Positions 2,340-12,546 of a DNA stretch of 64,000 bases are shown in pieces (within the stretch, counting starts at the first letter, position 1; every line of letters starts with the position of its first letter). The position numbers were made by a program, and so were the translations under genes. The notes below the pieces were generated by a model. The model did no database searches. It saw only the letters and a list, made by a program, of their open reading frames with translations, and was not told the origin of the DNA. Origin of the DNA: Dictyostelium discoideum (taxonomy: Eukaryota). The stretch covers positions 3,488,001 through 3,552,000 of the forward strand of contig CM000154.2 in assembly GCA_000004695.1 (NCBI GenBank), given 5' to 3'.

Positions 2340-2832
2340 ATGAAAAACTTTAATCAAATATTTTTATTATTTATTTTAATAGCGGTTATCGCTATTGGTA
2401 AATCAAATTCAGCAAAAATCACAAGTTATTCAGTTATTAGTCAATCATATTATACCGAAAATCCAAATAATCCATCAGAAACTGGTTGTAATACTGTATT
2501 TGATTTAACATTTAATTATGAATATGGATTAAATATTATTTTCACATCAGTTGTATCAGATGAACCCAATTTGGTTTTATTATCATCAAGTACTATTGTT
2601 TCAAATTCAACTTTAAGTACATTTAGATTAACTTCAAGAATTAAAGTACCTGGGTTAGTTACTGCCACATTTACTGGAAAGTATAATACAAATACAAACT
2701 CAAAAATTAAAGGTGATATTGGAATAACATGTTTACGTATGTATTTTAAAATTAAAATAAAATAAAATAAAATAAAATAAAATACAAAATAAATACAAAA
2801 TTATATTTATTAATTAATTAATTATTTTTTTA

Positions 2833-2875
<43 letters not shown>

Positions 2876-8684: not shown

Positions 8685-11600
8685 TTTTAATTAACACCTT
8701 TTTTTCTGGGAAAAAAAAAGTTTCAAGTGAATCTCAATTCAGTAGTATTTATTTCTACCCAGATTATAACGGTGAAACAACATCAGAATACTTTGGATAT
8801 GTAACATTTGATGTTTTAAATGATGATAGAGCTATAGTACCAGGTGTAACAAATAATTTATTAAATTTGGATACTTCAGAGAAAATGGATTTTGGTGTTG
8901 CTTTTCCAGTTGGCTACAATGGAACACATTCTCAATTTATGGGAATTATTGAACCAGGTAGAAAAGCTTCATTCTATTGGTACCTTGCTTCAACTGATAA
9001 TTCAGATATTTTACATACTAGATTTGTTCCAAAGAGTAACTATTTCTTTATTTCTTTTTATTTTATTATTATTATTATTTTAAAAAAAAAAACTAATTTA
9101 ATAATTTAAATTATATAGGGGATGTTAGACCTGTACCAATATCCACATCAGCTCAAGAACTTAATTATTGTCGTATTGGTATAATTGTTGTTGGAGATCA
9201 ATCTTTTGATTATACAATGCCTACAATCTATAAGTTTTCAACCAATAATGGAGATTTCCATGAATATATTCCATATTGGAGTGTAGATAGTTTTTATTCA
9301 AATACCAGTATCACAAGTATTTCACATGAATTAATTCTTCCAGCTGGTTACTACAATCCAACATTTAAAATGTATGCATCAATTTTAAATTATGATGATA
9401 CTGTTAGTTTACAAGTTCCAGGATCACCTGTTCCACCACTTGGTAATAGAGCACCGCCAACTGTTTTAGATATAGAATTAATTTCACCAACTGGTATTTT
9501 ATCAAACTTTTATATTTTAAGATTTAAAGTACAATCAGATTATTCAGAATTCCATCATTTAGATATTAATGGTAAAAAGGTATATGCAATTAATATAGTT
9601 TCAGGAAGTTTAAGTCAAGGATCCATAGGTTACTATGAAATCAATGTAAATTATACTTTTATAAAATCATTATCAAATTCTTTCACAATTAGCGCATGTG
9701 GTATTTTCCTTGATTGTCAAACCAATCAATATTTCCCACAATTATTAAATCCATTCCCAAGTTTACAATTACCTCATAATAATCTTATCACTGTTTATAA
9801 TATCACATATATAAATTTTAAATATAATAATTTAAATACAACAAATACCTCTAGAAATAATATTATTTATTTGAAGATAAATGGTTTAAGTGGATCGGGT
9901 GATGCTGAAACTATTCAATTTAAATTAGATATTTATGATGATTATTTACCATTCACATGGAATTCATTGTTATCTATGTTCCAATGTAATTTTAAGATTC
10001 CAGGAAATTATTATTCAGGTAATGTTGGTTACTCAATAATATTGGGTAGTAATAGTTTTAGTTATTCAAGTGTTTTTATTGCAACTGGTTCAAATTCAAC
10101 ATTGAATGTAACTTCATTAAAATCTGATATGTTACCTCCTATAATTAATTATATCCAAGCCTATCCAACAACTAATATTTATTTAGATCCTTATAATTCA
10201 TCATTAAATATTTTTGGATGGGATCTTGAAATTGAAGAAGGTGTTAATGGATTTGATCATGGCGAAGTCAATATTACAAGTGCTTATGATAAAGTTGGTT
10301 TCACCTTTAAATTTAACTCTTCAGATTTAATCGATGGTTATATTATTGAAATTAGAATTAATCATACTGAGATGGTATGTTTAGACCAAGCCTATTCAAT
10401 TACATCAGTTTACTTGGTTGATAAACAAGGTTATGAAACATCAAGATCATCTCAATATCAATCAGTTTCGGCATTATTTAAAGTGGCAGCATCTGATCAA
10501 TTATTAATTTATGTTCAATGTTCAAATGATAATGGTATTGGATATAATAGTACACATCCAGATGTCATTACTCCATTTATTTATAGTTTTTTCTTAGATT
10601 CTGGTTTATTTGACATCCAACTTGATTATGGTTCACCTTCTTCTAATAAAACTGTTATTGCAACACTAAGTATAGAAGATTCTGAGAGTGGTTTATCAAG
10701 TAGACACCATCCAACTATTTACCTTCAAGATGTTTTCGGTACTTTGATATCAATATCCATAGGAAATGGTATGACAGTTGTTGATGATACTGTATTTACA
10801 AGAACCTATTCATGTATTTTCACTATTCCATTTGGCTTTGGTTACCCAGCTGGTGCATCAATTGCAGTCTATGGTATTGTTGATAGATTTATGAATACAA
10901 GAGGTTATAATCATTACTCTTTATTTTATGATATCGGTAGAGGAACTGTCTCACCTTTTATATCCACTTCTTATTCATTGGCTCCTAGTATTGTAAATAT
11001 GGTTCCAACATTTGATCCAGATTATAAAAGTGCACAATTTATTATCTATGGTTCATTCCTTGGTTTGGTTTCTTCCGATGTTCAATTAACTATTGAATAT
11101 ATTAGTGAATCTTCACAATCTTCTTCACAAGATTCTCAATCACAAGAATTTACCTTAAGCCCAAGAAATATTTTATCAACCACAACAACTACAGTTCCAT
11201 TCACTGTTTCTTCAATTTTTGGTAATTTGATAGCAATTTCTGTTAATCTACAAAATGCAATATCCAGACAAATTCAAATCCAATTAAATGTTGCTGGACA
11301 ACCATCAAATGTTTATAACTTTATTTTACCATCAGAGGTAATAGATTCAACATCTACATCAGGTATTTCAACAACAACAACAGCTACTACTACTACAACA
11401 ACCCAAGATTCAACAAGTGGATCAGCTACTTCAGGTGGTGGTTCAACTACAACCGGTGGTGGTTCTTCTACTACTTCCACAACAACTGGTACTTCTGGTC
11501 CAGATTGTTCAAAATTATCAAATTGTGGTGGCTCAAGTCAGGGTAATTGTGTTGCAGATAATACATGTAGTTGTATTAACTCATGGATTGGAGTAGATTG

Positions 11601-12546
11601 TAATTCTAAACCATTAAAAGGTGTATCAATAAATGTTAATCCAAATGCACCAAGTGCTTCATTAGATCAAGATGATGGATCAGGTGTTAAATTATCAAGT
11701 TTAATTAATCTTTACCAAATTAGAGAAATTGATTCAGTTACAAATAAAATAATTTATCAATATGATTTACAAGATAAATGGGTACCAGTAAAACAAGCAT
11801 CACCAATACCAAATACATTTATTTATTCAAATACATTATCAAATGCTAAAAGTTCAGTTATTTATGCAAAAATTGCAATTTATGATAAACAATCAACATT
11901 TGAATTTGCAGGTCAACAATATTCAATTAATCCAAATTCAATTAAATTTACAATTAATATTACAAATTATAAAGTTGATAATGTATTAAATAATTTAGAA
12001 TTGATTATGCAAGCACAATTAAATTCATCACAAACTGATGATATTTGTTCAAAGAAAGAAGTTGTCAAAGGAAGTGGTTCAGATCAATTATCAGTTCAAT
12101 TAAATAATAAATCATTATATTGTAGATTTTTAAATAGTGCATTATTAGATGGAGTTACAGTTGTCAAAAATTTAACTCATGTAAATTTAAATTCAGAATT
12201 TCAAGCATTGGTTGAGCCAAATTCTGGTCAATACTTTTATGGTATTGTTTTACCAACCTTTAACGATTATATAATTTTGGATCCAGATTTTTCTTTACTT
12301 TTACAATCATCTACGATCTCAAGTGACGATGGAGGAGTTTGTTCAAGCTCAAGTAGTAAAAAATTCCCAGTAGGTGCAATAGTTGGTATTGTTGTTGGTG
12401 GTGTTGCTTTCATTGTTGTTATAGCGATAGTTATTTCAACAATACTATTTAGAAGACATCGTTTCAGTTCTGTTACAATGAAACTTAGAACTTGGAACTC
12501 TAAAAGACGTTCAAAATCAAAATCATATAATTTAAAGAATTTTTAG
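7799..12546 (+). CDS. paralog of the upstream surface glycoprotein (~1483 aa), 4 exons: 7799..8177, 8292..8621, 8721..9035, 9119..12546
   Basis: ATG 7799 with signal peptide MKQIIFLFFSLLLFNCFL. Donors are GTAAAT 8178, GTATGT 8622 and GTAACT 9036. Acceptors are ..ttag 8291, ..aaaag 8720 and ..atag 9118. All phases are consistent, and the CDS is 4452 nt. Architecture matches gene 2340..7445 (VNGFDHGE motif, S/T-rich linker, identical EGF-like module, TM VGIVVGGVAFIVVIAIVISTILF, tail RRHRFSS). The first three intron positions are shared with the paralog. Track ORF 8260..8454(-) is antisense to exon 2 and spurious. Confidence 0.6.
8626..8688. repeat. (TTTA)n microsatellite inside intron 2 of gene 7799..12546
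   Basis: Direct reading. It creates the poly-LFIY stretch in track ORF 8540..9109. Confidence 0.9.

Follow-up and report, generated by a model that had tools for sequence, protein, structure and literature searches.

ComC ('communication mutant C', the EGF-like domain-containing protein comC) of Dictyostelium discoideum reportedly acts non-cell-autonomously, upstream of lagC and lagD. In the same species the genes tgrB1 and tgrC1 are divergently transcribed, and Tgr proteins are said to be extremely polymorphic. GLMP, the glycosylated lysosomal membrane protein, is an accessory subunit of MFSD1 (PDB 6NYQ and 8R8Q). ComC has been described as an EGF-domain protein, secreted or transmembrane (TM), that is restricted to group-4 dictyostelids (PMC4931340), and the comC mutant shows aberrant aggregation (PMC2873529). 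Tgr proteins are defined by their IPT/TIG domains (PMC4931340, Table 4). Here we compare these systems with two adjacent genes, G1 and G2, in a 64,000-nucleotide stretch of the D. discoideum genome (assembly GCA_000004695.1, contig CM000154.2, positions 3,488,001 to 3,552,000, forward strand; the whole stretch is called the window). Taken as a whole, the locus is best explained as encoding two ComC-like type-I surface glycoproteins with different heads on a shared base, a reading to which we assign a probability of about 0.6.

G1 and G2 are members of a dictyostelid-restricted superfamily, here called ComC-like, which is characterised by DUF7743, DUF7035, DUF7034, DUF7949 and ComC_SSD. Four of these Pfam families were found above their gathering cut-offs in both proteins, namely DUF7035, DUF7034 and DUF7949 (27 bits each) and ComC_SSD (24 bits). 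The usual architecture of a member is DUF7743-DUF7035-DUF7034-DUF7949-ComC_SSD; in G1 and G2, DUF7034 directly follows DUF7035, and the EGF-like DUF7949 is followed by ComC_SSD. In an exhaustive HMMER scan with G2 residues 343-1075, at least 198 cluster representatives reached E<=1e-3; their length was mostly 1300-1400 residues. All representatives whose source was looked up came from dictyostelids (Dictyostelium, Polysphondylium, Heterostelium, Tieghemostelium, Acytostelium and Synstelium) and carried generic names only. The closest relatives beyond the D. discoideum complex were two D. purpureum proteins with 35-37% identity. One D. discoideum subfamily has a cellulose-binding module, CBM49, in place of the cassette made of the EGF-like module, the supersandwich domain (ComC_SSD) and the TM helix.

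Throughout the family the six EGF cysteines are invariant, and the juxtamembrane motif DPDFS.L and a juxtamembrane cysteine are conserved. The signal peptide, DPDFS.L, single TM helix and short basic tail form a common layout in 92 family proteins. In the family alignments, the VNGFDHGE motif of G1 and G2 is the local version of the DUF7035 signature GW..I.D..NGF..G. Two conserved cysteines of G2, the nearly invariant Cys1318 in the supersandwich (window ~12046) and the invariant juxtamembrane Cys1416 (~12340), may form a disulphide that ties the supersandwich to the segment next to the membrane, or may bond one molecule to another.

Both proteins have the same layout: a signal peptide, about nine immunoglobulin (Ig)-like β-sandwich domains, a Ser/Thr stalk, the EGF-like module, ComC_SSD, a TM helix and a basic tail (Table 1). 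The N-terminal hydrophobic leader and the one C-terminal TM segment give a type-I topology, and 21 and 24 N-x-S/T sequons are present in the two proteins. The first-pass annotation had listed the leader, VNGFDHGE, a Ser/Thr linker, six clustered cysteines, a single TM helix and a basic RxHRFSS tail, and all of them were found. Its 'large divergent ectodomain' is also there; it is, however, a defined series of β-sandwiches, including three with a match or a resemblance to Pfam families. Missing from the list was an all-β supersandwich of about 200 residues, which separates the EGF-like module from the TM helix. The EGF search that it had proposed succeeded only in part: DUF7949, a 35-residue EGF-like module, scored marginally over the threshold in G1 and G2, whereas canonical EGF models stayed below it (EGF_PEAR1L 16.9 and 17.6 bits, cut-off 37.5). 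With a family profile we obtained only weak EGF matches in the PDB (best E 0.013). No Pfam match was found, even at E<=10, for the N-terminal ~670 residues or for the 115 residues after DUF7034.

The stalks were delimited as regions with at least 60% Ser/Thr per 40 residues. The G1 stalk contains near-perfect repeats of TSPTSTTDGSQT and is the GC maximum of the locus (GC 0.41 at positions 6001-6500). It is about twice as long as that of G2, and its length also varies between strains and in comparison with D. citrinum. G1 further contains a poly-serine run between DUF7035 and DUF7034 (window 5076-5144, residues ~775-797). This run is absent from G2, and in AX4 it is about nine Ser/Lys residues longer than in strain ACTFIR.

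The gene models were made by joining open reading frame (ORF) pieces via GT..AG introns. GC content outside the exons is 11-30% in the window, and the long ORFs are broken by short AT-only gaps, which are typical of Dictyostelium. G1 and G2 are head-to-tail paralogues and can be aligned end to end. Their seven introns are all GT..AG, all in phase 1 and 71-154 nt long, and introns 1-3 lie at matching aligned positions. The fourth intron of G1 (window 4316-4404, 89 nt, phase 1) has no G2 counterpart and was gained or lost after the duplication. The two tandem genes of about 1560 and 1480 residues proposed in the first-pass annotation were recovered with 1563 and 1483 residues, and both were placed by a protein database search of the kind that it had suggested. 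The G2 protein is residue-for-residue identical to the D. discoideum AX4 entry XP_636002.2 (EAL62487.2, UniProt Q54GR7), whose database label is "EGF-like domain-containing protein". The G1 protein had no exact-string entry in the protein collection compared; P0005, from an independent annotation of another D. discoideum assembly, is 96% identical to full-length G1. Since this alignment is unbroken across all four splice junctions, it supports the G1 model.

Intact orthologues of G1 are present in L001, a second assembly of D. discoideum, and in L002 from D. citrinum. A pseudogene or an annotation artefact was ruled out, since all three genomes have uninterrupted ORFs and the ratio of nonsynonymous to synonymous divergence (dN/dS) is below 1. 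A tblastn search of the window with both proteins returned these two copies and no further paralogue. The AX4 reference annotation already includes both genes, and Pfam has an entry for each of their recognisable domains. Long homopolymers were seen in the G1 introns, with about 37 T at window positions 2839-2875 and about 27 A at 3656-3682. The poly-A run abuts the acceptor AG of G1 intron 3, and there is a similar A9-G end in G2 intron 2; this acceptor context is unusual.

We compared G2 segments with 167 family proteins by local phmmer. The DUF7035/DUF7034 core was matched in 155 of them, the EGF-like module with the supersandwich in 112, and the TM helix with the tail in 44. Residues 1-342 and 961-1075 were matched solely in the two D. 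purpureum proteins and the orthologues of G1 and G2; residues 343-677 matched the same proteins and a few weak others. When G2 residues 448-560 were aligned with the same region of other members by hhalign, the probability was 97.7% (E 1.3e-12). The Pfam DUF7743 HMM gave no hit there, and the segment looks like a diverged DUF7743 homologue, judging from the profile alignment. Residues 565-677 correspond to an unnamed domain that is common to the whole superfamily (99.3% probability, E 1.9e-20). For the head (residues 25-447), no convincing profile-profile homology to the equivalent region of other family members was found. At the other end of the protein, RxHRFSS was present in 9 of 92 family tails, all from D. 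discoideum and D. citrinum orthologues, while tails across the family are merely short and basic. A family-wide signalling role of this motif was therefore ruled out.

An AlphaFold2 model of G2 residues 1-1075, built on a 61-sequence family alignment, had a mean predicted local distance difference test score (pLDDT) of 76.5 and a predicted template-modelling score (pTM) of 0.71. Past the signal-peptide helix it is all β, with about nine sandwiches of 90-120 residues each, and the confidence peaks at residues ~450-1000. Five sandwiches follow the head, and four of the five are common to the superfamily. The model of residues 1127-1483 (pLDDT 87.6) consists of the EGF-like module, a β domain of ~24 strands and one long helix. 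In this model the EGF-like module is predicted to pack on a galactose-mutarotase-like supersandwich of about 200 residues. The closest solved fold to the supersandwich-plus-TM cassette, by two methods, was the luminal domain of GLMP. The top Foldseek match was 6nyq_C (E 7e-6, probability 1.0, template-modelling score 0.46-0.50), YidC came second, and the G2 model combines a luminal supersandwich with a single TM helix in the way GLMP does. The G2 sequence had no match in the PDB at E<=1, and the family profile did not find GLMP there at E<=10.

Given that GLMP is the best solved match to the cassette, and in view of the mucin-like stalk and the 21-24 N-glycosylation sequons per protein, G1 and G2 could be GLMP- or LAMP-like glycoproteins of endolysosomes or phagosomes. 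The luminal domain, heavily glycosylated, would then protect or stabilise a transporter on the degradative route of a professional phagocyte. We consider this improbable. The GLMP match is at the level of the fold, and GLMP is without the ~1100 residues of Ig-like domains. No YxxPhi or di-leucine motif was seen in the tails, which were read by eye and not searched systematically. Moreover, among the named hits the family is restricted to multicellular dictyostelids, which better fits a developmental role at the cell surface.

The one unusual feature of the pair lies in the DNA that encodes the base. Codon by codon, G1 and G2 have 41-75% nucleotide identity over most of the ectodomain and 100% over about 200 codons, third positions included. 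The first-pass annotation was right that the paralogues share an architecture, but it had overlooked this identical tract of 626 nt, which takes in the second half of the EGF-like module together with about 155 supersandwich residues. The D. citrinum paralogues are 99-100% identical to each other across most of the tract, yet only ~90% identical to their D. discoideum orthologues there. Downstream of the tract the pattern flips, and orthologues are closer than the D. citrinum paralogues. Informative sites between AX4 and D. citrinum grouped by genome in 47 cases and by orthologue in none inside the tract, and in 4 and 61 cases, respectively, downstream of it. The longest identical runs were 626, 176 and 334 nt in the three genomes. 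These results show that gene conversion has recurred independently and has stayed within the membrane-proximal module.

No other module of the family is as conserved as the one encoded by the tract, and the identity of the tract might in principle reflect extreme purifying selection or an assembly collapse in place of conversion. Selection does not account for it because synonymous sites were homogenised too: third positions are 100% identical within the tract, although the synonymous divergence (dS) of orthologues there is ~0.26-0.27, and flanks in the same frame diverge normally. An assembly artefact does not account for it either, because the pattern occurs in three independently assembled genomes with different edges. 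Together with the reversal of the site counts at the tract boundary, this leaves such an explanation almost no probability.

A possible further pair of this kind lies outside the window, in the D. discoideum CBM49 subfamily (P0014, P0158-P0163). Its members are paralogues of 1137 residues with the order DUF7743-DUF7035-DUF7034-CBM49, encoded at adjacent locus tags in three assemblies, for example ACTFIR_004261 and ACTFIR_004262. Both copies fall within one 90%-identity cluster. These paralogues look like another tandem pair, and concerted evolution may have occurred there as well.

The tandem pair is conserved, together with its flanking genes, in the second D. discoideum assembly and in D. 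citrinum. Upstream, the conserved flanks comprise a gene of the ribosomal protein S4 family and one for a 249-residue protein; downstream there is an NTF2_SigF-like gene. We calculated dS and dN/dS by the Nei-Gojobori method, comparing these two other genomes with AX4. Against the second strain, G1 had a dS of 0.072 and a dN/dS of 0.19, and G2 had 0.062 and 0.37 (neighbours dS 0.054-0.087). Against D. citrinum the values were 0.27 and 0.24 for G1, and 0.31 and 0.32 for G2 (neighbours dS 0.28-0.47). Synonymous divergence was on par with that of the neighbouring genes, both between strains and between species, and dN/dS was never above 0.7 in any region. These values indicate purifying selection on both genes, and the G2 head evolves moderately fast; in these comparisons the signature of an allorecognition locus was not seen. 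Outside the converted regions, G1 and G2 are 37% identical in the head and 51% in the core. Each resembles its paralogue more closely than it does either of the D. purpureum proteins, which are 46% identical to each other. This within-species pairing therefore points to lineage-specific duplications or to older concerted evolution.

The first-pass annotation had offered, as a guess, a relation to the Tgr/IPT proteins and had likened the locus to receptor loci that are polymorphic in social amoebae. In that case G1 and G2 would be a pair of allorecognition or kin-discrimination receptors with polymorphic IPT/TIG domains, like TgrB1 and TgrC1. The IPT/TIG search that it had proposed found nothing: no IPT/TIG or other E-set Pfam family was matched at E<=1 with the whole proteins or at E<=10 with the N-terminal halves, and Ig, FN3 and cadherin models gave no match at E<=1. 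DUF7035, DUF7034 and ComC_SSD make up the domain set of a different family. With dS like that of the neighbours and whole-gene dN/dS of 0.19-0.37 in the two comparisons, the suggestion of polymorphism is not supported either. G1 and G2 also lie head to tail, whereas tgrB1 and tgrC1 are divergent. The Tgr/IPT idea was rejected on these grounds, and an allorecognition pair of the Tgr type is very improbable. What holds from the first reading is a duplicated, heavily glycosylatable type-I protein of the surface type, as seen in the tandem pair, the sequons and the Ig-like β-sandwich ectodomain. An adhesion or recognition receptor also stays plausible from the topology, the Ig-like array and the stalk, once the Tgr and polymorphism part is set aside.

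Several features argue for a role of G1 and G2 in surface adhesion, recognition or communication. These are the type-I topology, the long Ig-like array, the mucin-like stalk and the many glycosylation sites. The sister architecture tethers the same core to cellulose via CBM49, and the family, among named hits, is restricted to aggregative dictyostelids. In addition, aggregation and communication between cells are affected by ComC, the sole named relative. By analogy with ComC, developmental cell-surface adhesion or communication is the likely role. In the mechanism that we propose, both proteins would sit in the plasma membrane, and the glycosylated stalk would hold the variable Ig-like head off the membrane. 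The ligand of the head would be extracellular and could belong to another cell, to prey or to the matrix. The protein would be anchored by the family-wide EGF-supersandwich-TM base, which would probably also contact a common membrane partner, comparable to the pairing of GLMP with a multi-pass protein. G1 and G2 would thereby differ in the head that they present and agree in the base. A partner would be required for any signalling, since a tail this short, and this variable in the family, could not be catalytic.

The CBM49 subfamily also brings to mind membrane-to-matrix linkers or lectins, in which the supersandwich or the core would bind a polysaccharide (cellulose, sheath glycans) and tether the cell to the matrix. 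We regard this as rather unlikely. There is no sequence similarity to carbohydrate-binding or catalytic families. In many glycoside hydrolases the supersandwich is structural or dimerising, and those of GLMP and YidC are, as far as known, not sugar-binding. The CBM49 swap itself suggests that the CBM and the TM cassette substitute for each other as anchors, and not that the cassette binds sugar.

A number of observations weigh against our reading of ComC-like surface glycoproteins with different heads on a shared base. The link to ComC was made through the Pfam family name. The first ~450 residues of the ectodomain were modelled with moderate confidence (pLDDT ~50-85). The likeness to GLMP is confined to the fold, with 8-10% identity, a template-modelling score of ~0.5 and no sequence-profile signal. 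The supersandwich fold alone does not imply docking of a partner, because it is also found in glycosidases and YidC. Restriction of the conversion tract could be neutral and set by where enough identity survives, instead of by selection on the shared base. Being found only in D. discoideum and D. citrinum tails, RxHRFSS is uninformative about the family. Literature searches on the accessions and DUF names found no papers, nor any expression, localisation or phenotype data for either gene.

A bolder idea, which we rate as a long shot, takes the analogy with GLMP further. The EGF-supersandwich-TM unit might be a GLMP-like docking module with which more than 100 family members of varied heads contact one multi-pass partner (a transporter, channel or receptor), and conversion might have been selected for compatibility with it. 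Docking to a common partner would mean a modular receptor system of 'many heads, one signalling base' specific to social amoebae. It would also offer a tractable model for the diversification of surface receptors in early multicellular lineages. What the analysis adds is the correct family (ComC-like and not Tgr), a complete domain map that includes the overlooked supersandwich, a GLMP-like structural lead for more than 100 uncharacterised dictyostelid surface proteins, and a record of domain-restricted concerted evolution. Of these, the conversion tract and the likeness of the base to GLMP are new, if modest.

The remaining genes of the window are listed at the end of Table 1. The NTF2_SigF-like gene next to G2 is strongly conserved (dN/dS 0.02-0.14). 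Long ORFs at 17805-20045, 23088-24671, 33273-34475 and 56496-60014 had no Pfam match, and no tRNA genes were found in the remainder of the window (17805-60014). A functional cluster with the neighbours was ruled out, since the PUF, acyl-CoA oxidase, FNIP-repeat, myotubularin and methyltransferase genes are unrelated.

Table 1. Genes, protein domains and conversion tracts of the G1/G2 locus, and other genes of the window (aa, amino acids).
Feature	Window positions	Strand	Residues	Remarks
G1	2340-7445	+	1563 aa	5 exons: 2340-2736, 2891-3217, 3289-3582, 3683-4315, 4405-7445
G1 clade-specific head	2412-3972	+	25-436	~four β-sandwich domains; crosses introns
G1 divergent DUF7743-like domain	3994-4311	+	444-549	looks like a homologue; aligned to G2 aa 448-560
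G1 equivalent of unnamed β-sandwich	4413-4757	+		alignment to G2 aa 565-677
G1 DUF7035	4758-5192	+	669-813	Pfam 105.4 bits
G1 VNGFDHGE	4875-4898	+	708-715	inside DUF7035
G1 DUF7034	5241-5582	+	830-943	Pfam 97.7 bits
G1 Ser/Thr-rich mucin-like stalk	6003-6395	+	~1084-1214 (Ser/Thr-rich stretch ~1082-1215)	
G1 EGF-like six-Cys module, DUF7949	6396-6506	+	1215-1251	Pfam 29.9 bits
G1 conversion tract	6438-7063	+	1229-1437	626 nt, 100% identical to G2
G1 ComC supersandwich domain	6600-7196	+	1283-1481	Pfam 56.8 bits; DPDFSLL at end
G1 TM helix and basic tail	7278-7442	+	1509-1532, 1533-1563	31-aa tail RTHRFSS...
G2	7799-12546	+	1483 aa	4 exons: 7799-8177, 8292-8621, 8721-9035, 9119-12546
G2 clade-specific head	7871-9435	+	25-447	~four β-sandwich domains; crosses introns
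G2 divergent DUF7743-like domain	9436-9774	+	448-560	looks like a homologue; hhalign
G2 unnamed superfamily-wide β-sandwich	9787-10125	+	565-677	hhalign
G2 DUF7035	10126-10524	+	678-810	Pfam 95.4 bits
G2 VNGFDHGE	10243-10266	+	717-724	inside DUF7035
G2 DUF7034	10621-10974	+	843-960	Pfam 76.3 bits
G2 Ser/Thr-rich stalk	11332-11499	+	~1080-1135 (Ser/Thr-rich stretch ~1078-1135)	
G2 EGF-like six-Cys module, DUF7949	11500-11610	+	1136-1172	Pfam 28.8 bits
G2 conversion tract	11542-12167	+	1150-1358	626 nt
G2 ComC supersandwich domain	11704-12300	+	1204-1402	
G2 TM helix and basic tail	12376-12543	+	1428-1452, 1453-1483	31-aa tail RRHRFSS...
NTF2_SigF-like gene	12701-13570	-		two exons; directly downstream of G2; orthologues weakly flagged NTF2_SigF
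PUF/CCCH RNA-binding protein	27625-30414			
Acyl-CoA oxidase	35290-37011			
FNIP-repeat protein	37827-39203			
Methyltransferase	41568-42446			
Myotubularin-like phosphatase	44204-47518			

With the superfamily, which consists of ~1350-residue 'EGF-like domain-containing' proteins and of CBM49 members named 'carbohydrate-binding domain-containing', G1 and G2 have in common the core, the EGF-like module, the supersandwich, DPDFS.L, the invariant cysteines, the TM helix and the short basic tail. They differ from it in being 100-200 residues longer with an N-terminal head of their own, in a DUF7743 region too diverged for the Pfam model, and in the RxHRFSS tail, which only their D. discoideum and D. 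citrinum orthologues have. The Pfam supersandwich family, in which G1 and G2 both score above threshold, takes its name from ComC, whose group-4 range is also the taxonomic range of the G1/G2 clade. G1 and G2, for their part, have a clade-specific four-domain head. GLMP resembles the base; it is, however, without the EGF-like module, the stalk and the Ig-like array, and is lysosomal in animals. TgrB1 and TgrC1 (lag family) are likewise large type-I surface proteins with Ig-like-fold ectodomains, encoded by adjacent D. discoideum genes, but their IPT/TIG domains and extreme polymorphism were not seen in G1 and G2. Domain-restricted concerted evolution in general has the same marks as our tract, namely sharp-edged identity, homogenised synonymous sites and grouping by genome. 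The mechanism at G1 and G2 is ordinary, and what is particular to this locus is the overlap of the tract with a family-wide membrane-proximal module in at least three genomes.

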